From an uncultured Gammaproteobacteria bacterium (lineage in GTDB: Bacteria > Patescibacteriota > Patescibacteriia > UBA9934 > GWF2-40-263), in contig CAZIDX010000001.1 in NCBI GenBank assembly GCA_964538435.1, positions 203,304 through 267,303 of the forward strand: a DNA stretch of 64,000 nucleotides, in the 5' to 3' direction. This document shows, one piece after another, positions 1,459 to 12,233 of this stretch; position 1 is the first letter of the stretch; every line of letters starts with the position of its first letter. The position numbers were made by a program, and so were the translations under genes. The notes beneath the pieces were generated by a model. The model searched no databases, was not told the DNA's origin, and worked only from the letters and a program-made list of their open reading frames with translations.

Positions 1459-1503
1459 GGTTGATTGTAACACATCCGCATATAGACCTGACCCCATAGC
1501 CCC
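1459..1503. repeat. Solo copy of the IS right-end inverted repeat (…CATATAGACCTGACCCCATAGC)
   Basis: Matches 11703-11748, the right end of the Y1-transposase element, with a 2-nt deletion. No transposase is adjacent. Confidence 0.6.
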
Positions 1504-1533: not shown

Positions 1534-1566
1534 AACCACAGCAAGCTGTGATTTTTTGTTGGCTCC
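1534..1566. terminator. Bidirectional hairpin terminator (CCACAGCAAGCTGTGG flanked by A and T runs), duplicated at 11891-11916
   Basis: The stem CACAGC/GCTGTG with TTTTTTG on both strands is seen directly. The same 31 bp follows the tRNA-Asn 3' end at 11891-11921. Confidence 0.55.
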
Positions 1567-1663
1567 GAATAGTAAACGAGTTCAGAACCGTGGATTGGAA
1601 GAAATTTCACTCAATAGTAACTCAATTTACAAACGCAAATTTCTGCCACTGCTGATATTCTAA

Positions 1664-2980
1664 CTAACTTTCGAGGACTGACCAGTATGGCTGATCATAA
1701 TTTTCACCATTTATATCCTTCAAGATATCAATGTGTTCTTGTGACAATCCATTCACGAGATCGTTTAAATAACTGATAAATTTATCACGATCATTTAAAG
1801 TAAAAAATCGTGTGTCATATTCACCAATACGAAATTGTTTTCGAGTGCCTTTTGGCAACTCTTTCAAAACTCTAGCCGATTGCTTGTCAACGAACATAGC
1901 GTCACAATATGGCAAGTAACTAGAAATAAATTGCATATCTGCAGTAGATTTTGGTGCCTTCTTTTCTCCCAAACGAGCTGATCGAGCCAATCCCGCAAAC
2001 ATTACTGAGTTAATTTTAAGATAAGGCACATCTAACAGAGAATCGGCGTCATTGAGGTACTTATGAATGATATCCAAAACTTTTGTTTGATCGACACCTT
2101 TTTCAATTGCACTTTGTATAAGTTTACTGAGCAAAGAAAAAGCGGGTGGTGGCAAGATATCGTTTATTTCAAATTGAAAGGTTGGATCAGAAACTGCCCT
2201 CAATGTTGCGTTTTCTCTTCTTTGAACAAAGGCCCTTGTTGAAGTCAATACACCTTTTCCGAAACCGAGAACCTCTTCTCTAACCCTATCCTCGAAAGAC
2301 ATTTCTTCAGACTGCCACCGCTTCCAGATATTTGCCAACTGTTGTTCTGTGGAAGTATTTACTTTTTTCAGGTTATCAATCTCCTCAGCTTGTTGTGAAA
2401 AACCCACCGAAATCCTCATGCCGATCTCCCAAGTATGTAAATCTCTAAATGAAATATTTTGAGGGTCAAGTTCAAATATTGCATGTTTCCCATCTAGCCA
2501 GCAAGCAAAGTGCTGTCGCACTTGTTGTTCTTCAATGACGTGCGCTGGAAACAATGTTTTCCCACCAGAAAAATGTTCGTATAACTTTTTTGCCACCTGA
2601 AAATCAATGCCACCAAAGCTTGACTCATCCTTATGAAAAAAGCTGTCTGGACAAACGATCACTTGTGATTTAGAAGCCCTCTCTAAAGCAACAAATAGAT
2701 CGTGCCAAAATGGGTCTCTTTTTATTCGCTCATGACTTGGGTGCGTAGAATCAAGTAGCTTTATCAGATTACTGATTACAAATTGATCTAAATAAATAAC
2801 CTGCTTAAACAGATCTGGCAGGCTGATACGATTCTGATAATGACATTTCACACATTCTCTTGTGTAATAATTGTCACCTGAAATAATAATCAAAACACCA
2901 AAAGATGTTTTGCTCTTGCATGAAGGACAATCTTTATAGGGTTCAGTTATTAAATCATTTCTTGATAACTCTTGAGCCAT
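1664..2980 (-). CDS. Hypothetical protein with N-terminal CxxC…CxxC zinc ribbon, last gene of the RM operon
   Basis: ORF 1664..3106. Start moved to MAQELSRNDL… (ATG at 2978-2980), 7 nt after the upstream gene stop. Motif CPSCKSKTS…ECVKCH. No recognisable catalytic domain. Confidence 0.45.
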   Translation of the reverse strand: MAQELSRNDLITEPYKDCPSCKSKTSFGVLIIISGDNYYTRECVKCHYQNRISLPDLFKQVIYLDQFVISNLIKLLDSTHPSHERIKRDPFWHDLFVALERASKSQVIVCPDSFFHKDESSFGGIDFQVAKKLYEHFSGGKTLFPAHVIEEQQVRQHFACWLDGKHAIFELDPQNISFRDLHTWEIGMRISVGFSQQAEEIDNLKKVNTSTEQQLANIWKRWQSEEMSFEDRVREEVLGFGKGVLTSTRAFVQRRENATLRAVSDPTFQFEINDILPPPAFSLLSKLIQSAIEKGVDQTKVLDIIHKYLNDADSLLDVPYLKINSVMFAGLARSARLGEKKAPKSTADMQFISSYLPYCDAMFVDKQSARVLKELPKGTRKQFRIGEYDTRFFTLNDRDKFISYLNDLVNGLSQEHIDILKDINGENYDQPYWSVLES

Positions 2981-2987
2981 AGGCCAC

Positions 2988-4475
2988 TCATACCAAGCTA
3001 AGCAGTCTTCTATATATTTCAACCATTGCCAACGTGTCCAGCTTACAGTATTCGAGTAGGTCTTTGGCGATCTGGTTTTTTTCTTTTTGAGAAGTCTCTG
3101 GATCAATCATCTTTTCCCATCGCTCAACTGCTTGGTCACCCTTCTGCACATTCAATGCTTTGTAAGTCAGCTCTGGCACAAGGACTGGTAACACCTTCTT
3201 GATACTCGCACTCCCCATAAACTTTGCATCAACATACATGTTTTTTGAGAAGATATGCATGAGATCAAACATGCGGTCATTCATGCCCTCAAGGAAGTCA
3301 GTGTGTTCTGGATGCAGCTCTGCGAGCTTATTGTTTCGCTGCGATTCGTACGACTTATACCAAGAGATAACAGAACCCTTGTCATCAAAATCTTTTCTCA
3401 TCTGCTCAATGAGCGGCAGGGTCAAATCTTTTGTTGGCTCAGTAATCAAAAACTCTTTATGCTCCATTGTTCCGTCTTCATGCAACACATGTAGCGAATA
3501 CTGGAACGGCACTTGTTCATAAGCACCAAAGCCGCTGAACCGAGGAATTGCAGACGAATAACCCTCATAATCAAAGAAGTGAATTGGAAACACAAGCTCG
3601 TCTAACGCTTCCTTAATAGCCTCATGGTCAATGAGAGGCTTACCAGCCATATAGGCGTTGTATTGGGCTAATTTCGCCCCTGTGAGCTTCTCAGGGTTAT
3701 CTATATCCTCAAATGCGTAGATACCACGATCAATCCAGTCATAAAACAACTTCTTGCTCCCACCAATACGATTGATGTCATGAACCGAATACTCAGGAAC
3801 GTCAGGATTCGAGTAAACAAACGTCGTACATTGCGCATTGCGGCCACGATACAAACACTGACATCCTTTCTCTTCTGGATCGTGTAAATAGGCTTTCAAA
3901 TCACTCATTTGAGCTTGTACCTCTTCCTCGGCACCAAGCACTTCATCGGTTAAATCAGCAATGATAAACAAGTCGTCATAATTAACCTTCGTAAGCATTC
4001 GATACTCACTATTAAGATGAATGACGCCCGACTTAACTATCTTCACACCACAGCCTTCAATAACAGTCTTCTGAAACGCAAGATCATTTACATGATGATG
4101 AGGCACAACACGCTTAACATCATTGGTCGCCTTAACCTCATACAACTCCCAACCACCTAACACTTCGTTAAAGCGCAAAACGTCAGCCTGAACAAAAAAC
4201 TCATCATGCAAAAATGCACCCTGAAAAATGGTGTGTGTTTTTGTTTCAAGAAGACTCTCTGTAAACGGCACTGCATTAGGACCAACAATCTCAACCAAGA
4301 CACCATCAGGAAACAGACCTCTTGCAGCTTCATCCGCAAGGTTTCCTTCTTCAATAATCTTCTTCTCAAACTCAGAAAGTTCTACCCCATCAAAAAGCTC
4401 TGGCTTATGCTTCTTCAGCCAAAGATTCTTCCTGCAATAGGTGTATTCAAGATAGTCAGTCTTTGTGATGTGCAT
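2988..4475 (-). CDS. DUF2779-like nuclease (Cas4/RecB-like PD-(D/E)xK N-terminal region plus exonuclease-like C-terminal region)
   Basis: N-terminus MHITKTDYLEYTYCRKNLWLKKHKPELF fits the characteristic DUF2779 start (…SKS.F..G.QC.K.LWL…H.PEL). Cys cluster CQCLYRGRNAQC. ATG at 4473-4475, 1 nt from the RM stop. Alternative start at 4502. Confidence 0.55.
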   Translation of the reverse strand: MHITKTDYLEYTYCRKNLWLKKHKPELFDGVELSEFEKKIIEEGNLADEAARGLFPDGVLVEIVGPNAVPFTESLLETKTHTIFQGAFLHDEFFVQADVLRFNEVLGGWELYEVKATNDVKRVVPHHHVNDLAFQKTVIEGCGVKIVKSGVIHLNSEYRMLTKVNYDDLFIIADLTDEVLGAEEEVQAQMSDLKAYLHDPEEKGCQCLYRGRNAQCTTFVYSNPDVPEYSVHDINRIGGSKKLFYDWIDRGIYAFEDIDNPEKLTGAKLAQYNAYMAGKPLIDHEAIKEALDELVFPIHFFDYEGYSSAIPRFSGFGAYEQVPFQYSLHVLHEDGTMEHKEFLITEPTKDLTLPLIEQMRKDFDDKGSVISWYKSYESQRNNKLAELHPEHTDFLEGMNDRMFDLMHIFSKNMYVDAKFMGSASIKKVLPVLVPELTYKALNVQKGDQAVERWEKMIDPETSQKEKNQIAKDLLEYCKLDTLAMVEIYRRLLSLV

Positions 4476-4476
4476 A

Positions 4477-7400
4477 TCATTCAGGTTTCCAAACATCATC
4501 AATCTCTCTCATGATACGCTCAGTATTTGTCAAAGCGACGATGATTTTTTGCCAGTGGAGAATGTCGTCAAAAGTCAACCTGCACCCGCATCGATTTTTC
4601 AACCATCTCTGTGCAGGCTTGTATCCACCTATGTGAAAGTCCCAAGTATTTTCAGGAACTTTATCAAAATACTGCGTTTTGTTGATGTACACCTTTCCTG
4701 CATCAAATTTAGGATAACTTTTCTCAATTGTATTCGATCCAGAAAACGGAAACTCTGTTTTGGGCTTATCGGAAGCTTTATGATTCAAAAGGTGATAGTT
4801 ACGCAATTCTCCACCTAGTTTGATCAATTCTACAAACCGCTCGGCTGTGTCAGGATACGGGATGCAAGGAAAGTTTGTGCTCAAAAATTTTACATATTTT
4901 TTTCGGTATGAAGGTGAATACAAAATCGCGTATACATAATCAAATACATCAAGCGGTGAAAAAACATCACCTTCTGTATCATTGATTGTGGTAGCATCAA
5001 AACTGAATCTCAACCCGGTTGACCGTTCTATTTTACTCACGATATCTTGATCTAAATTCGGATTTCGGTATTGATTTTCATTAGTCCCAAATGACGTTTG
5101 ATTTGATTTATCATCATATGTATACAGTGGAAAAATCGCCGACTGTGTCGTGCGTTCAGCAAACTTCGCCTCAGTTATCAGACTGCTAACAAAAAAATGA
5201 TCTGGCCTGCCACTCTTATTACTTCGCGCGCTTGCAAGAGCCAAGTTGTTACCTGTCAGCATGTTTCGCATTACACTCCCTCTGTCTCTTTCAATAAAAT
5301 CTGGACTGTAATAGATGTGTCGGTTATCGAACGGTCTATACGAAATCTGTTTAATATTTTCTGAGTCGTATGAATGCTGTTGCGCTTGCGCTATCTTCCA
5401 GCTCTTATTTTCACGGAGATTATATTTATTCTTAGCTATTATGGGATCAAGTGTTAGAAATTCCTCTATTCTTACTTGTAATTGTTCTTTATCAAAATCA
5501 ATAACGAATGCATCTCTTGATGTCACAATCCCAACCGAATTTATTGGAAACAGAATGTTTAGATAAAAACCTTCCTCATACTTTTCCATTGCTTGAAAAT
5601 CACATCTAACGAATGGGTAATTAGGCGCTTGATTATTTAAAGTAACCCAGTTGATGGATCTAATATCATTATTCATGAGATCGTTATACTTCTCGTTTCG
5701 TTTTCCATAAAAGTCAGCATGAAGTATCTCTGCCAGCTCACTTGTTTTTCTACCATTTTTTATTGCCAAAATGATTGAAACCCCTTGCTTAATATCGAAG
5801 ACATTCTCATCTTTTCCTCCATCTGGTGCAGTCTCATTTCTTTGAGAATTACCATGTAGGTCAACTATATATATTTTGTCGAAGGTCGTAAGTAGATGCC
5901 AACGCATACCTCGAAAAGTTGGGTTATCCAGGTAACCATGATTTGTAACAAATCCAAGAACCCCCTCTCCGCTCTGTTCGATCATGTATTCTGAAAATCG
6001 CATGAACTTCACATAGTCATCATTGATCCATTTTGGATTTCGTTCACGTAATTTTTCTATTCCACCAGGCTCCTTCTTATATGCTTCCATCAGACCCATG
6101 ATGAAGTCACCCTTATTTTTTGACTCACCACTATAAGGAGGATTACCAAGTATGACCACTACTGGAGTCTCTTTTTTAACCTTATTCGCGGCATTTGCTT
6201 CGTTACTAAGCCAGGAAGAAAATAATGTATTTGTATCAGGATGTGCCTCTTCCAAACTATTAGTCAAATAGACACCAAGACGTTCGTTGGTATTTTTCTT
6301 TTGTCTATAACCAAATTCAGTAAGCAATAAATCAAGCTTTAAATGACACATGGCATAAGGTGCCATCAGAAGTTCAAAACCGTGGATTCGAGGTAATAAA
6401 TGTTCATTCACATAACTGTCCCAAATACCTTCCTGCCCTTCGAAGTTTGAGTGTATCTTACGAACAATTTCTGCCAAAAAAGTTCCTGTTCCAGTGGCTG
6501 GATCTAGAATTTGTACTCGATGCACTTCTTTTTCGATCCTTCGTTTTCCATCCTTGTATCGACCATCTGCCATCTGTGCATCAACCTCAACAGTAGTCAT
6601 GCTTGTATCAGCCAGACCTTTTTCCAGATTGAATTCATCTTTTAGAATATCGTCAATCGCCCGAACAATGAATTGAACAACCGGCTCCGGCGTATACCAT
6701 ACCCCACGAGATTTGCGCAGTTCAGGGTTAAACTCAGAAAGAAAAGTCTCATAGAAATGAATGAAAGGATCTAATCGCTTACTCTCAGAATGGAAGCTCT
6801 CCAAAATCTTTTTCACATCCGCAGCCCGGAATACATCTGCAAGCGCATCCACAATCCAAACGATACGATCATCTAGATCAGGACCAGCGACAGTGTTAAA
6901 CAACTTGCGTAAAAAAGGATTTGTTTTTGGTAAGAGTTCAGCTGCTTCTTGTCGACTAAAAGTATCAAGTGTTGGATCATGCAAGCGAGCTGCAAAGAGG
7001 CCGTATGCAATTGTCTGAGCGTACATGTCAGCAAACTCATCTTCTTTCATGTCATGAATCAGCACATTTCGAAAAGCTTGAAGCTCGCTTCGCAGATTAG
7101 ACTCTTCTTCTTCTGAATTTAGTGCTTTTGTGATCACATCTTTCATCAACCTTGCTTTTCCAGCCATGGCTTTTACCAGCCTGGATGCGGATTTGATCGT
7201 CTGACCATTATATGAAATGAAATCAGTTAACAAGTGCTGGAAGCGCTCAACTTCCTTATGATCAAAGATGATTTTATTCTTCTCTTTTGTACCAACGCAC
7301 ACTTGATCAACTTTTTCTCCATTAACAAAAAAACGAAAGTCTAAATAATCTGTTAAAACTAGATTATCTAAACTTTCAAGATATCTTTTTATTTGATCAC

Positions 7401-7653
7401 TGTTCTCGACATCATCAAGAGCAGTGCCAACATCCTTAGCCTCAATATAGCCAATCGGAACCTCTTTTTTTGTAAGAATGAAGTCTGGTGCCCCACACTC
7501 CTGACGCTTAGGTTCATTAACTGCAGAAATATTCTTGTCTAAATTTTCAATGAGGCTCTTTAGCATTGGACGGTAGCTATGTTCCGTTGCTTGGCCTGTA
7601 TCAAACTCTCTTTGGACAGACAAAAAATACTCTGCAAAAGTATCTTCATTCAT
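4477..7653 (-). CDS. Type IIG restriction-modification enzyme (MmeI/YeeA-like: PD-ExK nuclease, gamma-class N6-adenine methyltransferase, target-recognition domain)
   Basis: 1058 aa. N-terminal APDFIL…GYIEAKDVG (PD…EAK nuclease motif). SAM motif I VQILDPATGTGTFL. Catalytic motif IV ILGNPPYSG. C-terminal region …ILYSPSYRKKY…YKPAQRWLKNR typical of MmeI/Type ISP target-recognition and coupler domains. Confidence 0.75.
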   Translation of the reverse strand: MNEDTFAEYFLSVQREFDTGQATEHSYRPMLKSLIENLDKNISAVNEPKRQECGAPDFILTKKEVPIGYIEAKDVGTALDDVENSDQIKRYLESLDNLVLTDYLDFRFFVNGEKVDQVCVGTKEKNKIIFDHKEVERFQHLLTDFISYNGQTIKSASRLVKAMAGKARLMKDVITKALNSEEEESNLRSELQAFRNVLIHDMKEDEFADMYAQTIAYGLFAARLHDPTLDTFSRQEAAELLPKTNPFLRKLFNTVAGPDLDDRIVWIVDALADVFRAADVKKILESFHSESKRLDPFIHFYETFLSEFNPELRKSRGVWYTPEPVVQFIVRAIDDILKDEFNLEKGLADTSMTTVEVDAQMADGRYKDGKRRIEKEVHRVQILDPATGTGTFLAEIVRKIHSNFEGQEGIWDSYVNEHLLPRIHGFELLMAPYAMCHLKLDLLLTEFGYRQKKNTNERLGVYLTNSLEEAHPDTNTLFSSWLSNEANAANKVKKETPVVVILGNPPYSGESKNKGDFIMGLMEAYKKEPGGIEKLRERNPKWINDDYVKFMRFSEYMIEQSGEGVLGFVTNHGYLDNPTFRGMRWHLLTTFDKIYIVDLHGNSQRNETAPDGGKDENVFDIKQGVSIILAIKNGRKTSELAEILHADFYGKRNEKYNDLMNNDIRSINWVTLNNQAPNYPFVRCDFQAMEKYEEGFYLNILFPINSVGIVTSRDAFVIDFDKEQLQVRIEEFLTLDPIIAKNKYNLRENKSWKIAQAQQHSYDSENIKQISYRPFDNRHIYYSPDFIERDRGSVMRNMLTGNNLALASARSNKSGRPDHFFVSSLITEAKFAERTTQSAIFPLYTYDDKSNQTSFGTNENQYRNPNLDQDIVSKIERSTGLRFSFDATTINDTEGDVFSPLDVFDYVYAILYSPSYRKKYVKFLSTNFPCIPYPDTAERFVELIKLGGELRNYHLLNHKASDKPKTEFPFSGSNTIEKSYPKFDAGKVYINKTQYFDKVPENTWDFHIGGYKPAQRWLKNRCGCRLTFDDILHWQKIIVALTNTERIMREIDDVWKPE

Positions 7654-7736
7654 ATTGTGCTTTGGTAGGATTTTATTTGCAAAAAGGGGTCAGGTCGGAC
7701 TACGGACTTTTTCTATCTCAATTTTATCACAAAAAG

Positions 7737-7766
7737 AAAAACGAACGCTATTGATGACGTTCGTTC
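7737..7766. terminator. Palindromic hairpin AACGAACGctattgatgaCGTTCGTT between the two island modules
   Basis: An 8-bp perfect stem is seen directly, downstream of the 7800..8567 gene on the minus strand. Confidence 0.35.
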
Positions 7767-7799
7767 CTCTTGGCTCCGAATTGTGGAGGATGTTAGAAC

Positions 7800-8567
7800 T
7801 CAAATTTCAAAGAACATCTCAATCTCCTCTCTTACAACAGCTTGAATTCTTTCAACAAAAGGTAAGACATACTCGGCCCTCGACTTGTCGTCAGGAACAT
7901 CATTTTCATCAACGTGATAACACGAAGGAGAGGTGGCTACTATTATTATATCTGGCCTCTTTGGTAATGAAGTAAATAGATGGTTTAAAAAAGTCTTTAT
8001 TTCAACATCACTCACAATAGAATCACCTTCGTCCGAAGGATAAAAATAATCAATATCAATATCAAGAAAAAGAATAGACTTGCTAGAAATACCCATCACA
8101 CTTTTACAAAACGACTCTTGATCAACAAAATTTTCAAACTTAAAATTCAATTTACAATCTTTGTTGAAAACCCCACGCACCTGACTCTGACGACACAACG
8201 TAAATATTTTTGCGCCCTCCCCACACTCATAAAGAAAAGGATAAATGAAATTTTCGAATTGCAACCACTCGTTTTCAAAATGATCTATTTCAGATAATTC
8301 CTTAGGCAAATAGTGAAGCATGTCTTTATCAATAACAGCATCAGGATGCGCATCAATGTGCAGAAGGATTATTCTGTTACCACACGACTTTGTCATCAGA
8401 AATCTTTTCCAAACACCATAAGCCAACCTATGATTGTTCATGATGAAATAAGCATTCTTTTCGTCCTTCAATAAAAACCTTCCACCTAAAGCGCTTGTAA
8501 AATCGTTATTTACACTTTCAAGATTTTGCTTATATCTCCAGCCATTATCCTCTTGGTCTAACTCCAT
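7800..8567 (-). CDS. Arginase/deacetylase-fold (ureohydrolase superfamily, UPF0489-like) metallohydrolase
   Basis: Motifs NNHRLAYG … ILLHIDAHPDAV … FLDIDIDYFYPSDEGD correspond to the GGDHS / DAHxD / SxDxDxxDP metal-ligand motifs of the arginase family. Confidence 0.5.
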   Translation of the reverse strand: MELDQEDNGWRYKQNLESVNNDFTSALGGRFLLKDEKNAYFIMNNHRLAYGVWKRFLMTKSCGNRIILLHIDAHPDAVIDKDMLHYLPKELSEIDHFENEWLQFENFIYPFLYECGEGAKIFTLCRQSQVRGVFNKDCKLNFKFENFVDQESFCKSVMGISSKSILFLDIDIDYFYPSDEGDSIVSDVEIKTFLNHLFTSLPKRPDIIIVATSPSCYHVDENDVPDDKSRAEYVLPFVERIQAVVREEIEMFFEI

Positions 8568-8633
8568 AAGTAATAATAGTAGATAAAACCGACCTCGTGG
8601 CCGGAGTATAATTTATCACAAACCTTCTCGATT

Positions 8634-9092
8634 TTATTGTTTTCCCGTGGTGATATTTTCAAAGACCTCCTTAAATTTGTTTCTTTTCCTTTTTTCCATA
8701 AACGACCAATCCATACTCTGCTCCAGAACTTCAATCATGTCAGAATTATCTAGCTCGTATATAACCTCTGACACACCATACTTTAAGGTCCTTCGGAATA
8801 AGTAAATCTTACCTTTGTATTCGAAATAATACGGTCTAACGATATTAAACTCATCTTCAAGCTTTTGTTTCAGAACAGAAAACTCACCGCTACCCCTATC
8901 AACAATTGGCTCTTCTGAAATTTTTGCACGTAATTCCTGTGCCGACAATCCAATATTTTTTGCATTAACAAACGCATCGAAATATCGTTCGTATAAATTT
9001 ATAAAGTACCCAACCACATCAATATCGACCACAAAAGGCTCGTTCGGACCAAATGTCTTCCATTCCAACTCATCTTGTATAACTCTTTTCAT
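8634..9092 (-). CDS. Hypothetical protein (152 aa), part of the four-gene module
   Basis: Intact ORF tightly packed with neighbours (15-nt and 66-nt gaps). No recognisable motif. Confidence 0.4.
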   Translation of the reverse strand: MKRVIQDELEWKTFGPNEPFVVDIDVVGYFINLYERYFDAFVNAKNIGLSAQELRAKISEEPIVDRGSGEFSVLKQKLEDEFNIVRPYYFEYKGKIYLFRRTLKYGVSEVIYELDNSDMIEVLEQSMDWSFMEKRKRNKFKEVFENITTGKQ

Positions 9093-9107
9093 ATTCTAGA
9101 TGCTTAT

Positions 9108-9662
9108 TTACAAAAGCCCCAATTCAGACAAGATACTAGCAGCAACACTATTCTGATTAGTGAGACTGACTTGCTCCGTTATCATCGCACCCGAACACAA
9201 CTCGACCGCTTTCATAAACTTCTTCTCAAAGTCTGCATCGGTAAACTTTTTCAAGAAAAACAAAGCCATCAACAAAACTGACCACATTGTGTAAGTATCA
9301 ACTCCTGTTGCAAACAACCCGAAACCATTTGCTTTCATCTGAAAGTTCATGTGATCCCGATCTGGATCAAAAGATATATCACCAACAAAATTCTTTTTTT
9401 CTGTTCGTGAAAATTCAAGTAAATTATTGATTGCATCTTCTGGAAAATATTCTGAACCCTGTTCCGAAAGCTCATTCAAAGCCATAGAAAGATATTGCAT
9501 CGTTGGATTTCCTTTAAGATTCGAAAACTGTCTCAAAGTAAATAATAGGAAAGCAAGAATTGCGCCTCTTTGATTTTCCTGAGCACTGTCACCAGACGTT
9601 TCAAAAAGAAAAGCTGCCTTATTTTCTTCCTTGCAGTGAATTTCAAAATGTATTGTTGTCAT
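9108..9662 (-). CDS. Hypothetical protein (184 aa), part of the four-gene module
   Basis: Intact ORF, 1-nt gap to the upstream gene. No recognisable motif. Confidence 0.4.
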   Translation of the reverse strand: MTTIHFEIHCKEENKAAFLFETSGDSAQENQRGAILAFLLFTLRQFSNLKGNPTMQYLSMALNELSEQGSEYFPEDAINNLLEFSRTEKKNFVGDISFDPDRDHMNFQMKANGFGLFATGVDTYTMWSVLLMALFFLKKFTDADFEKKFMKAVELCSGAMITEQVSLTNQNSVAASILSELGLL

Positions 9663-9663
9663 A

Positions 9664-10713
9664 TCACTTTTTCCAAGAAGTTTTACCTAAAACTATGTAA
9701 TAGAAAACTTTAGAGATTGCAAAAAATACCGCAACCGTTACCACAATAAACCAAGAACCTATTTCAGGATCATCAAGGTAAAGGGCCCATCCCAACAACA
9801 ATGTTAGCACAAGAGCAACGACATACAGCACCTTTAAGAATCTAAACCAAACCTTGCCTTGCAGTGGATTCTGAGAAACTGGATGTGCTGTGGTGGCATC
9901 GGCTTGTTCTGGAGATGCAACATTGTTCATGTACTCTTCAGGTTTACCAAAAAGACCCTCTGCTAATTCTGAGATGCGTTGGAGCAATTCAGATTCTTTT
10001 TTTGATGACTGTTCTAACAATCGAGTTGCTCTATCCACTCTCAACTTCATTTCTGTTGCGGAAATTTGTTTGGGCATTACCCCATCATTGTCTACAACAA
10101 TTGCTGGAATGATTCTTTCAATTGCAAGATTCTCTTCAAGGGCAGTTGCGGCATCCTTTCTTGCATCCTGTAGTTGATTAACCAAACCATTCCACTCGCT
10201 AAAGTTAGCACCTAAAACTTTAATGGAATCTTCTTGGCTATACTTATGCAATTTTTTGAAATCAATTTTCTTCAAAAATGACTCTATTCGCAACAACAGT
10301 GAAGCAACAACCTCCTGTTGTGTAAGCACACTTTCAAAAACCCGCTCCTCATAAACATCAATGATTTGCATTGCCGTTTTTGCAAGTTTCAAATTCTCCT
10401 CTTGGGTTTGAGTGTTATTAGGATCAGACAAAAGATCAGAAATTCTCTGCAAAGCCACAAAAGCATCATTCTCATCCTTGTGATCAAAATGAAAAGCAAG
10501 ATAGGACCCTTGTTTAATAGACGCTTTCTGAACCTCAGTTCCCAAAGCAATCAACAACTTCAAATTCCGATAATCAATTTTTGATTGTTCATATTCTTCG
10601 CGTGCTTTATCAATCTTTTTCTTGAAAAGGGTAAAAGGGTCAGGTCTATATATGATACTACTTTCTAGATATCTGTCCGATTGTTGAACAGTGAAGCCCG
10701 AGATGTTTCGCAA
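9664..10713 (-). CDS. Coiled-coil protein with C-terminal 2-TM region (possible membrane effector). N-terminus runs into IS-derived sequence, so the gene is likely 5'-truncated.
   Basis: C-terminus …VWFRFLKVLYVVALVLTLLLGWALYLDDPEIGSWFIVVTVAVFFAISKVFYYIVLG has two predicted TM helices. The first ~27 codons (10633-10713) lie in another frame inside the duplicated transposase 3' end and IR. Confidence 0.4.
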   Translation of the reverse strand: MRNISGFTVQQSDRYLESSIIYRPDPFTLFKKKIDKAREEYEQSKIDYRNLKLLIALGTEVQKASIKQGSYLAFHFDHKDENDAFVALQRISDLLSDPNNTQTQEENLKLAKTAMQIIDVYEERVFESVLTQQEVVASLLLRIESFLKKIDFKKLHKYSQEDSIKVLGANFSEWNGLVNQLQDARKDAATALEENLAIERIIPAIVVDNDGVMPKQISATEMKLRVDRATRLLEQSSKKESELLQRISELAEGLFGKPEEYMNNVASPEQADATTAHPVSQNPLQGKVWFRFLKVLYVVALVLTLLLGWALYLDDPEIGSWFIVVTVAVFFAISKVFYYIVLGKTSWKK

Positions 10714-11032
10714 TTTCAGTACTCAAATATCCACATCTAAACCTTGCAAACTTGATAGCATTATCTCGTTCTTGTTTTGATGAAACCCCTTCAAATATTT
10801 CATCAAGTGTGGGTCTGCCAACAATTCGTTGTAAAAGGGTCAGGTCTATATATGATGCTACTTTCTCGATATCTGTCCGATTGTTGAACAGTGAAGCCCG
10901 AGATGTTTCGCAATTTCAGTACTCAAATATCCACATCTAAACCTTGCAAACTTGATAGCATTATCTCGTTCTTGTTTTGATGAAACCCCTTCAAATATTT
11001 CATCAAGTGTGGGTCTGCCAACAATTCGTTGT
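10633..11032. repeat. 200-bp tandem duplication (10633-10832 and 10833-11032, 2 mismatches) covering the left IR and the 3' end of the transposase gene
   Basis: Direct comparison of the two 200-nt units. Confidence 0.85.
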
Positions 11033-11740
11033 TCTCTTGGATACTCTTTGAGCTGTTCAGAGCCGTTTGTATGATTCTCCCAAATCCAATGAACATACTG
11101 AGGAGACCCAAGTATAAATCCATTCGTGAGATCATTATATGGATTATCCGCAGCAATACCATCCATCACAAACTTTCTATACTGTTTCTGTGCTTCTTTT
11201 CTCTCATCTCCAAATAAACTTAGTATCCAATCTGTGTGCAACCACTCAGGACATTTACTCGTTCCTGCTGTGTGTTGGTAACTACTCCACTTCCATTTTT
11301 TGGGATGGTCGCAGAGAGAATCGCGAACCGGGTTCAAGACAATATATCGAGAAACAGCTAGAAGATAGGTGTCTTTTTCTATAACGAATGCCTTGTAGCG
11401 TCCTTGCATCAAATGTCCGACTGTTTTGTGTCGTGCGTTAAAAGATTGCGTGTAGTTTCCATTAATGTCACGCATAGCTTTTGAGAGATTTCCATCAGGG
11501 GTCTCGATAAGTAAGTGGTAATGGTTGTCCATCAAACAATATGCATGAACGATGAGATTGTGTAGTTCAACAGCATCCTGAATCATTTCAAGAAAAAGAA
11601 GACGATCCTTGTCTTCTTTGTAAATATTTTGATAGCCATTACCTCTAGACATCACATGATAGAGGGCTCCAGGATATTCAACTCTCAGTGGTCTTGCCAT
11701 ATGGTTGATTGTAACACATCCTCATATATAGACCTGACCC
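10837..11740 (-). mobile_element. IS200/IS605-like (Y1 HUH transposase) element bounded by 19-bp perfect inverted repeats GGGTCAGGTCTATATATGA, RAYT/REP-like organisation
   Basis: IR at 10837-10855 and its reverse complement at 11722-11740 flank the single transposase ORF. Extra solo or partial IR copies at 1459-1503, 10637-10655 and 7685-7698. Confidence 0.6.
10858..11700 (-). CDS. Y1 (HUH) tyrosine transposase, IS200-like TnpA fused to a DnaA-domain-IV-like C-terminal HTH
   Basis: LYHVMSRGN … CLMDNHYHLLIE (HuH motif) … RYIVLNPV. C-terminus LSTEIAKHLGLHCSTIGQISRK resembles the DnaA C-terminal DNA-binding helix. Confidence 0.8.
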   Translation of the reverse strand: MARPLRVEYPGALYHVMSRGNGYQNIYKEDKDRLLFLEMIQDAVELHNLIVHAYCLMDNHYHLLIETPDGNLSKAMRDINGNYTQSFNARHKTVGHLMQGRYKAFVIEKDTYLLAVSRYIVLNPVRDSLCDHPKKWKWSSYQHTAGTSKCPEWLHTDWILSLFGDERKEAQKQYRKFVMDGIAADNPYNDLTNGFILGSPQYVHWIWENHTNGSEQLKEYPREQRIVGRPTLDEIFEGVSSKQERDNAIKFARFRCGYLSTEIAKHLGLHCSTIGQISRK

Positions 11741-11756
11741 CATAGCACAACTTCAA

Positions 11757-11843
11757 AACCTCCTGACTCGACTGAGCATGTACAAAACCACCTGACGTAA
11801 AAAACAAACTTATAACAAAGACTGCAAAAAGATATTTTTTCAT
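11757..11843 (-). pseudogene. Duplicated 5' fragment of the yibE/F-like gene (promoter plus first ~29 codons) fused to the IS right end
   Basis: 11757-11893 is ~96% identical to 1273-1409. Translating from the ATG at 11841-11843 gives MKKYLFAVFVISLFFTSGGFVHAQSSQEV, then reads into IS sequence. Confidence 0.55.
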
Positions 11844-11916
11844 ACAAGGGAAATTATAACAGATCAGACACCACTCACTTCAAACAAAAAACCACAGCAA
11901 TGCTGTGATTTTTTGT

Positions 11917-11991
11917 TGGCTCGGGGGGTGGGGTTCGAACCCACGACCCACTGGTTAACAGCCAGTTGCTCTGCCACTGAGCTACCCCCGA
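11917..11991 (-). tRNA. tRNA-Asn (anticodon GTT), CCA encoded
   Basis: Reverse complement folds as TCGGGGG-TA-GCTCAGTGGCAGAGC-A-ACTGG-CTGTTAA-CCAGT-GGGTC-GTGGGTTCGAACCCCAC-CCCCCGA-G-CCA. Confidence 0.85.
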
Positions 11992-12233
11992 ACGTTTTCG
12001 TCTAGCCATTTCCTTCCTTGCACACATTTGAGAAACCTCTCTCTTTTCATGGCTTCAGACTTTGTTTGATACTCTTCTACATGGATTAAACTAAATGGCC
12101 CATTTTGTCTAGTCCATTGATTTGTACCAGTTAGGTGTTCATGCAATCGTACATTAACATCCCTGCTTGTAAAACCAACGTATCTTTTGTTGTTTTTTGT
12201 ACTACGCAAGACGTAGACCGAATATTTCTTCAT
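11982..12233 (-). CDS. GIY-YIG nuclease-domain protein (UPF0213/YhbQ-like)
   Basis: YSVYVLRSTKNNKRYVGFTSRDVNVRLHEH. The 3' end overlaps the tRNA-Asn 5' end by ~10 nt. Confidence 0.65.
   Translation of the reverse strand: MKKYSVYVLRSTKNNKRYVGFTSRDVNVRLHEHLTGTNQWTRQNGPFSLIHVEEYQTKSEAMKRERFLKCVQGRKWLDENVRG

Follow-up and report, generated by a model that had tools for sequence, protein, structure and literature searches.

A probable TIRYT transposase element on a Patescibacteria contig and the tandem duplications anchored at the ends of its family

The subject of this analysis is a small transposase element in a 64,000-nt stretch of DNA, here called the window (contig CAZIDX010000001.1, positions 203,304-267,303, forward strand, assembly GCA_964538435.1). 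The source is by name an uncultured Gammaproteobacteria bacterium, and its GTDB lineage is Patescibacteriota; Patescibacteriia; UBA9934; GWF2-40-263. A single tyrosine transposase gene lies here between perfect inverted repeats, and we regard the locus with high confidence as a TIRYT element ("TIRtron"), a kind of element that has been named and described before and is not a new transposon type. Across related loci, tandem duplications are concentrated at the element ends and share a stereotyped junction, and the window carries both a 200-nt and an 8-nt duplication at the downstream end of its element. Coordinates are positions within the window unless an L-number, which denotes a related locus, is given. 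The element and its dispersed ends comprise the following features.

10837-11748: probable TIRYT unit of about 0.9 kb, a single Y1 transposase gene between 19-bp inverted repeats
10858-11700, minus strand: Y1 (HUH) tyrosine transposase gene, probably of TIRYT type; intact open reading frame (ORF) of 280 aa
11722-11740, minus strand: upstream terminal inverted repeat, 19 nt, exactly complementary to 10837-10855 and 10637-10655
10837-10855, plus strand: downstream terminal inverted repeat, proximal copy, 2 nt past the stop codon
11701-11721, minus strand: spacer of 21 nt between the upstream repeat and the ATG
11741-11748, minus strand: putative outer extension of the upstream end, plus strand CATAGCAC, which with the last repeat bases gives CCCCATAGC
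10631-10830, plus strand: distal copy of the 200-nt unit (flank, downstream repeat, stop, transposase 3' end)
10625-10640, plus strand: 8-nt micro-duplication, AAAAGGGT twice, at the outer edge of the distal downstream repeat
1459-1500, minus strand: orphan upstream end (19 nt of the transposase 5' untranslated region [UTR], the inverted repeat and the outer CCCCATAGC)
7686-7696, plus strand: isolated repeat core GGGGTCAGGTC, 11 nt, intergenic, between the genes at 4477-7653 and 7800-8567

The element and its transposase

The 19-mer GGGTCAGGTCTATATATGA is present in three exact copies in the window, at 10637-10655 and 10837-10855 on the plus strand and at 11722-11740 on the minus strand, where none would be expected by chance (0 in 100 shuffles). 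As a first-pass annotation of this DNA had proposed, the copies at 10837-10855 and 11722-11740 form a perfect 19-bp inverted repeat around the ORF, 2 nt 3' of its stop and 21 nt 5' of its ATG, respectively, and homologous elements carry such repeats too. Each is inverted with respect to the other, and neither is self-complementary. With one more outward base the upstream repeat reads GGGGTCAGG, which fits the TIRYT consensus GGGGWSAS, and the upstream end GGGGTCAG (tGGGGTCAGg) is an exact fit to the same motif; the downstream end has GGGTCAG, with an outer GGG and not GGGG, one G fewer than the motif. Alignment of the element's upstream end with the orphan end reveals the outer CCCCATAGC in both (1492-1500 in the orphan end), and this sharing suggests that the extension at 11741-11748 may be part of the mobile unit. 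No target-site duplications were visible at the ends inspected.

The spacer upstream of the gene holds TGTTACAAT (11708-11716, minus strand), an extended -10-like box that ends 7 nt 5' of the transposase ATG. A consensus promoter scan made no call at this box; if it does serve as the promoter, as its position suggests, the mRNA would be leaderless or near-leaderless. TTGAC or TTGCA stands at a -35-like distance in the inner part of the upstream repeats of many relatives.

The IS200-type HUH/Tyr core recognized in the first pass is borne out by both profile and structure searches. Pfam Y1_Tnp matches residues 14-120 (3e-12), while the NCBIfam equivalog REP_Tyr_transpos scores 77.0 bits, below its cut-off of 80. 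The protein has the HUH motif H60-Y-H62, the catalytic Y119 within RYIVLNP together with N123, and a W138-S-S-Y141 motif. Among the 38 homologs used for residue conservation and for Pfam domain tallies, H60, H62, Y119 and N123 of RYIxxNP, and W138 are invariant, and S139-S140-Y141 are at least 90% conserved. An AlphaFold (AF2) model built from the alignment of these homologs has a mean predicted local distance difference test (pLDDT) score of 88. Its top Foldseek match in the PDB is 4er8_A, the E. coli TnpA_REP bound to a hairpin of the repetitive extragenic palindromic (REP) type (E 2e-7), followed by the ISDra2, IS608 and IS200 transposases. The structural alignment with 4er8_A, the closest solved structure of the catalytic core, has 15% identity.

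The Y1_Tnp match and the structural matches to TnpA_REP and to the IS608 and ISDra2 TnpA proteins, as well as one homolog from the Joint Genome Institute (JGI) metagenomes that carries the annotation "REP element-mobilizing transposase RayT," would also suit a classical IS200/IS605 element or a canonical REP-associated tyrosine transposase (RAYT) unit, a REPtron. We reject this reading as extremely improbable. The ends are perfect inverted repeats, the 280-aa protein with its extra helix-turn-helix (HTH) domain is roughly double the size of an IS200 TnpA, and the score against the NCBIfam RAYT equivalog falls under the cut-off. Hairpin ends of the IS200 or REP model are ruled out by DNA folding: each strand of the two ends and of the orphan end was folded, and not one of the six folds surpasses its shuffled controls (z = +0.45 to +1.35 for five of them and -0.02 for the minus strand of the orphan end). 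No subterminal hairpin or REP palindrome was found. Likewise, neither the repeat search nor the folding of the ends found palindromic, GTAG-tagged REPs near the gene. Since the ends lack hairpin potential, the element is distinct from both IS200/IS605 and the REP-associated RAYTs, a difference from classical IS200/IS605 that the first pass had also drawn.

The comparison with these systems is otherwise one of shared chemistry and divergent ends. Like the window element, members of IS200/IS605 such as IS608 and ISDra2 have the HUH/Y1 fold and its catalytic residues, and target-site duplication is not seen; unlike it, they have asymmetric subterminal hairpin ends, lack inverted repeats, and encode a TnpA of about 130-155 aa with no HTH. 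E. coli TnpA_REP resembles the TIRYTs in its dispersed short repeats and in REP clusters that are reiterated in tandem with flanking DNA, but it recognizes GTAG-tagged REP hairpins and, at 165 aa, has no HTH.

A low-confidence, disordered linker at about residues 216-227 separates the catalytic part of the window protein from a C-terminal domain at about 228-280, which is an HTH by prediction. Modelled alone (pLDDT 89), this domain has a short helix followed by three HTH-type helices. The window protein has no Pfam HTH match at E ≤ 0.1; in the homologs, Pfam reports HTH_23 in 17 of 38, HTH_3 in 10 of 38 and HTH_28 in 5 of 38. The first pass had likened the extension to DnaA domain IV, and of this claim the predicted HTH stands, while the specific likeness to DnaA is a weak lead. 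The profile scan that matched Y1_Tnp found no Bac_DnaA_C in the window protein or in any of the 38 homologs, and no DnaA was returned when the PDB was searched with profiles of the entire protein or of its C-terminal domain alone (45 matches at E ≤ 10 for the latter). Foldseek with the isolated domain placed the M. tuberculosis DnaA DNA-binding domain (3pvp_A) on top at E = 0.28, which is not significant, and HipB, KorA, LsrR, DeoR and sigma region 4 score about like it. An hhalign comparison with an approximate sequence of E. coli DnaA domain IV aligned the expected helices at P = 0.04 and a probability of 1%.

Relatives, classification and mobility

At least 7990 homologs came out of the protein search; among the matches listed, the closest that carry a name are from Patescibacteria and Candidatus Uhrbacteria. 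The window's own transposase is recorded once, on a 285,363-bp NCBI contig. We confirmed 595 relatives in species-representative genomes and kept the best 80 of the 595. These 80 are 44-65% identical over the full length and come from Desulfobacterota, Nitrospirota, Gammaproteobacteria, Acidobacteriota, Atribacterota, Bipolaricaulota, Chloroflexota and Patescibacteria.

The terminal repeats are conserved along with the gene. In the first loci fetched, the genes lie between perfect inverted repeats of 19-27 nt starting (T)GGGGTCAGGTC. A family core, GGGGTCAGGTCT or GGTCA(G/A)GTC, is present at 64 upstream and 53 downstream ends of the relatives, the outer repeat core (G)GGGTCAGGTC is conserved across the family, and the consensus flanking the relatives' genes is tGGGGTCAGGTCTTg. 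The distance from the core to the ATG is mostly 30-45 nt, with a median of 35.5. JGI metagenomes were scanned for the exact 19-mer, which was found on two contigs, L085 and L086; in the genome collection searched it had no match. The element on L086 is complete. Its protein shares 73% identity with that of the window, and its repeats match at 19 of 19 positions upstream and at 18 of 19 downstream; the repeat is therefore more strongly conserved than the gene.

This architecture already has a name, which the first-pass annotation had missed. Di Nocera, De Gregorio and Rocco (2013, BMC Genomics 14:522; PMC3733652) called RAYT-like genes with flanking inverted repeats TIRYTs and the corresponding units TIRtrons, with a repeat motif GGGGWSAS and repeats that can form dispersed families, single, paired or grouped. 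Like the window element, TIRtrons have a Y1 RAYT-like gene, inverted repeats instead of REPs, and a short, fixed distance between repeat and gene, and orphan, paired and clustered repeats occur in some of their host genomes, as they do here. The 26 published TIRYTs are from cultivated bacteria, e.g., Acidobacteria and Stenotrophomonas (PMC3733652), unlike the present element, which is from Patescibacteria and for whose family the consensus can be extended to tGGGGTCAGGTCTTg.

According to Quentin et al. (2018, BMC Genomics 19:475; PMC6006769), 20 of the 26 TIRYTs fall in TnpA_REP subclass 2.1, a subclass that the authors equate with the TIRYTs, that ranks second in size, and that was present in 14.9% of their strains. 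Its members have a C-terminal extension like Bac_DnaA_C, HTH_23 or HTH_28 and no REPs nearby, and the TIRYT repeat motif bears no resemblance to a DnaA box (PMC6006769). The window protein shares with this subclass a long Y1 protein, a C-terminal HTH extension, the absence of REPs nearby, and a serine motif after the catalytic Tyr region. Its architecture and the placement of most published TIRYTs suggest that it, too, belongs to subclass 2.1. In the Patescibacteria clade, Pfam reports HTH_23, HTH_3 and HTH_28 but never Bac_DnaA_C, which matches the "short" HTH version of subclass 2.1. Our literature search retrieved nothing on TIRYTs after the 2013 and 2018 papers and no experimental study.

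The first pass had also described scattered cognate repeats beside a single gene, and such orphan ends, as well as a derivative resembling a miniature inverted-repeat transposable element (MITE), do exist in the window and its relatives. Five repeat cores are present in the window, all within its first 12 kb. One of them belongs to the solo end reported at 1459-1503, which we delimit as an orphan upstream end at 1459-1500 with no transposase gene attached; its homology to the element ceases 2 nt before the would-be ATG, and its repeat (1476-1494, minus strand) is degraded by a 2-nt TA deletion and one substitution. The end reported at 7685-7698 is narrower than claimed, only the 11 nt at 7686-7696, but it is intergenic and matches the family consensus core. 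About 0.03 chance matches to this 11-mer would be expected in 64 kb on both strands, and the core probably represents an orphan end left over from a related element. In the source genome, dispersal of the REP kind is at most a possibility.

Orphan cores are in clear excess in the DNA flanking the related loci, with 56 found against 12 expected. In L001 (Patescibacteria contig JBHPEM010000013.1), two divergent TIRYT genes are accompanied by 11 of these orphan cores in 17 kb. These are mostly intergenic and fall into at least three subfamilies; some are upstream ends that keep a decayed gene start, and one inverted pair of cores, at 11623 and 11744, is 121 nt apart. On a Desulfobacteraceae contig (L049), an element is present twice, with about 4 kb between the copies, which share 98% identity over 922 nt and stand in different contexts; the identity begins about 9 nt outside the GGGG. 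L085:303-445 (JGI contig Ga0233425_10030326) is a 143-bp element with both exact 19-mers and the 5' UTR that retains no more of the gene than a decayed start, which makes it a MITE-like internal deletion. This element and the inverted pair of L001 resemble non-autonomous derivatives mobilized in trans, as MITEs and REPINs are; a multi-copy family of such derivatives in the source genome would be conjectural. Together, the L049 copies, the L085 derivative and the excess of orphan repeats support the view that these elements are mobile.

RAYTs are widely considered domesticated, and the locus might accordingly be read as a non-mobile, RAYT-like host gene whose repeats serve as HTH-bound operators or structural sites. 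The full-length conservation of the protein at 44-65% identity across phyla, the single intact copy in the 64-kb window, and the overlap of the upstream repeat with promoter-like sequence (TTGAC or TTGCA in the family consensus) would agree with this. We consider it unlikely in view of the near-identical L049 copies in different contexts, the deleted derivative of L085 with both repeats intact, and the divergent multiple copies and many orphan ends of L001. The distribution is also patchy among unrelated phyla, and the window element sits at the edge of a low-GC island, where it interrupts a duplicated gene fragment.

Tandem duplications anchored at element ends

The downstream end of the window element lies within a 200-nt tandem repeat (periodic region 10631-11032). 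The first pass had reported this duplication as exact; it is present, and its copies are identical at 198 of 200 positions. They differ at 10657 (A) versus 10857 (G), 1 nt past the stop codon, and at 10667 (A) versus 10867 (C), a synonymous change of a Ser codon in the transposase frame. The unit is made up of outer flanking sequence of 4-6 nt, (GT)AAAA, followed by the downstream repeat (10637-10655), the stop, and the final 58 transposase codons (10658-10832), so that the content described in the first pass is correct. The repeat at 10637-10655 belongs to the duplicated unit and is not the independent solo end for which it had been taken. The two units meet at CGTTGT|AAAAGGGTCAGG (10827-10845), i.e., CGTTGT|AAAAGGG, with a 2-nt microhomology (GT). 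At the outer edge of the distal copy, the 8-nt unit AAAAGGGT, made of 4 nt of flank and the first 4 nt of the repeat, is itself duplicated, and its boundary at 10632|10633 agrees with one of the phases that the 200-nt unit can take. In the metagenome relative L086, AAAAGGGG stands twice at the position matching that of the window's 8-nt unit.

Such duplications are a property of the family. In 82 related loci plus the window (807 kb in total; Tandem Repeats Finder, period ≥ 12), 78 tandem repeats were detected; 28 of them include a repeat core or lie directly beside one, against an expectation of about 2, a more than 10-fold enrichment. Their form is also stereotyped. An exact distal tandem copy accompanies 24 of 189 cores. 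In 13 of the 24, the inner junction is at repeat position 5-8, with a mode of 7 (GGGGTCA^GGTC); 5 have it at position 14-17 and the other 6 further in. Flanking sequence mostly contributes 9-12 nt to the duplicated unit. Short arrays, in which a truncated repeat with a few flanking nucleotides on its outer side stands beside one complete repeat, are commoner than long ones; they are found at the outer edge of the element, at both ends, with about 10 nt of flank plus GGGGTCA in up to five units. Examples are listed below.

L059:2843-2933: array of five units
L042:3339-3385: array
L040:7123-7205: array
L019:3321-3569: array

The larger duplicated units span 72-902 nt, the 200 nt of the window among them. 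L040 has a 283-nt duplication of the gene 3' end and downstream repeat in addition to arrays of 17-19 nt, an arrangement like that in the window. In L067, a 902-nt duplication takes in the whole element, the second copy lacking the upstream repeat, and L032 has a 72-nt duplication. In L001, an orphan upstream end has been duplicated in tandem as an exact 187-nt unit (1354-1727). The description of TIRYTs in PMC3733652 does not mention end-anchored tandem duplications with a stereotyped junction.

These parallels bear on whether the 200-nt duplication could be an assembly artefact, e.g., two strain variants chained together at what is truly a single-copy TIRYT abutting the neighbouring two-transmembrane gene. 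The source contig is metagenome assembled, and the copies differ at 2 of 200 positions, as strain variants would. The junction CGTTGT|AAAAGGG is, however, novel, a sequence that a collapsed or bubbled graph would not invent, and the 8-nt micro-duplication lies at a matching boundary. Similar end-anchored duplications are present in independent assemblies from other phyla and projects (L040, L067, L032 and L001), and because of these independent parallels we consider an artefact quite unlikely. The 200-nt and 8-nt duplications of the window would then be products of the same end-duplication process that is seen across the family.

The duplications could also be real but independent of the transposase, having arisen by replication slippage or unequal recombination, with the orphan ends being remnants of dead copies. 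The 2-nt GT microhomology at the 200-nt junction, which has no recognizable cleavage motif, is compatible with this, as are the several L001 orphan ends that keep a decayed gene start, consistent with erosion, and the orphan end at 1459-1500, which stops at the gene start. Unspecific slippage would predict neither the concentration of tandem repeats at cores (28 of 78 against about 2 expected) nor the clustering of inner junctions at repeat positions 5-8, and we give this explanation a modest chance, short of a likely one.

The reading we favour, tentatively, is that the transposase itself leaves the duplications behind. E. coli TnpA_REP cleaves single-stranded DNA at TGCC^TGAT, with an obligatory C^T step, and becomes linked to the DNA through a 5'-phosphotyrosine (Ton-Hoang et al. 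2012, PMC3333891). To explain how bacterial interspersed mosaic elements (BIMEs) are amplified, it was proposed that the strand is cleaved, that a host polymerase extends the 3'-OH, and that the extended strand is rejoined to the 5' end linked to the tyrosine (PMC3333891). In the TIRYT family, the modal junction read on the other strand is GACC^TGACCCC, whose C^T step resembles the E. coli site. An enzyme dimer might recognize both repeats, with the HTH binding duplex DNA and the Y1 domain acting on a locally melted or replication-exposed strand. Cleavage would take place at the C^T step in the repeat, GACC^TGACCCC (GGGGTCA^GGTC on the other strand), forming a 5'-phosphotyrosine link, and strand rejoining would then move the whole unit or, more often, yield by-products: orphan repeats, MITE-like internal deletions, and tandem reiterations of the repeat with adjacent DNA. 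The cleavage site, the role of the HTH and the mechanism of duplication are inferred here, while the identity of the element, the conservation of its repeats, the evidence of a mobile past, and the family-wide enrichment and stereotypy of the duplications are shown. We hold this cleavage site, and the origin of the duplications by nicking, extension and rejoining, to be possible but doubtful. Equally tentative is the corollary that the end-anchored duplications may be in-vivo footprints of the enzyme that mark GACC^TGACCCC, such that TIRYTs would amplify DNA locally in a rolling-circle-like manner. We know of no in-vivo trace of the mechanism proposed for REP/BIME amplification.

Several observations weigh against this reading. 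The junctions at position 14-17 are left unexplained by a model with a single cleavage site, and the outer junctions have no common cleavage motif. Within the window, the junction of the micro-duplication lies at repeat position 5/6 (GGGT^CAGG) and not at 7/8, a C^T step is missing from GAGAAC|AACGAA, where the 200-nt unit has its inner junction, and only two orphan ends are present in the 64 kb. An A-run adjoining the downstream repeat is, by alignment, common to three elements in different contexts, so part of the assumed "flank" may belong to the element. Metagenome assemblers can generate false tandem repeats, and the duplication in the window is known from the assembly alone. Biochemical data on any TIRYT were not found in the searchable literature.

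Genomic context and significance

The element is bordered by two features on the minus strand.

9664-10713, minus strand: two-transmembrane gene, annotated P0121, 349 aa, TTG start at 10713
11757-11893, minus strand: truncated promoter and signal-peptide start, 94% identical to that of the YibE/F-like gene (289-1362), abutting the upstream end of the element

An annotated length of 349 aa requires that P0121 start at the TTG at 10713, which lies inside the distal duplicated copy. Its first 27 codons (10633-10713) are duplicated element DNA read in another frame, and the corresponding 27 residues are almost certainly not native protein. The 200-nt duplication would thus have placed element sequence against the two-transmembrane gene, whose annotated start now falls in element DNA. 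The first pass had gone further and had the native 5' end of this gene displaced. Only two homologs of P0121 were found, both distant (28% identity each in the search, 30% and 24% in the alignment); one has an N-terminus longer by about 60-90 residues, and the other begins near the P0121 start. The longer, distant homolog makes loss of the native 5' end plausible. We also considered whether the signal-peptide ORF at 11685-11843 and the two-transmembrane gene are one split gene, and rejected this, as the body of the YibE/F-like gene is unrelated to the two-transmembrane protein.

The truncated copy at 11757-11893 is part of a direct repeat of about 166 nt (1273-1409 plus 1531-1565 versus 11757-11922), which takes in a terminator hairpin and the final 6 nt of tRNA-Asn besides the promoter and signal-peptide start of the YibE/F-like gene. 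The two copies are 94% identical over 137 nt, with a further 35-nt terminator stretch that has one indel, and an insert of 121 nt, in which the orphan element end lies, interrupts the left copy. Between them lies a low-GC block of about 10 kb (about 1566-11756) with a Type ISP/MmeI-like methyltransferase-type gene, a DUF2779/RNase_H-like gene, and unknown ORFs. The element is at the right edge of this low-GC stretch (0.36-0.42, against 0.45-0.57 elsewhere in the window). From its composition and flanking repeats, the block looks like an island inserted by recombination beside tRNA-Asn; no integrase is visible.

In Patescibacteria, copies of the element often lie 50-260 nt from a tRNA gene, which is tRNA-Asn twice and tRNA-Gln twice, at the following positions.

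11917-11991 (window): tRNA neighbour
L001:14089-14163: tRNA neighbour
L086:3513-3586: tRNA neighbour
L007:6487-6560: tRNA neighbour

This proximity could be an insertion preference or could mark a safe intergenic site. As a family rule, tRNA adjacency is rejected, being confined to several Patescibacteria copies and not found in other phyla. Rfam reports only two tRNAs in the window, and in the repeat-rich segment 1200-1800 it gives a single sub-threshold RNAI match (27.7 versus 47 bits) that we regard as chance. An ORF with a GIY-YIG nuclease domain (11982-12233, minus strand, 83 aa, Pfam 1.2e-15) ends 10 nt inside the 5' end of tRNA-Asn on the same strand. A motif of about 30 nt, TGGCTCCGAAT...GTT(C/A)GAAC, occurs three times (1429-1458, 1559-1588 and 7770-7799). 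Read on the minus strand, it ends ...ATTCGGAGCCA just 5' of a terminator-like hairpin, a layout like that of the tRNA-Asn 3' end (TGGCTC, 11917-11922). Neither ARAGORN nor Rfam makes a call at these sites, which may be relics resembling tRNA 3' ends or a 3' UTR element.

At the level of annotation, the practical point of this locus is an error: the start codon of the neighbouring gene has been set within duplicated element DNA. More broadly, TIRYTs make up a large subclass for which the searchable literature yielded no experimental work, yet the loci compared here combine a repeat core that is nearly invariant across phyla, mobile units with MITE-like derivatives, and stereotyped end duplications. 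For an uncharacterized class of enzymes, this family-wide stereotyped duplication of the ends is the most interesting remainder of the analysis, as it leads to testable predictions of where the transposase would cleave and of how families of its repeats may be amplified.

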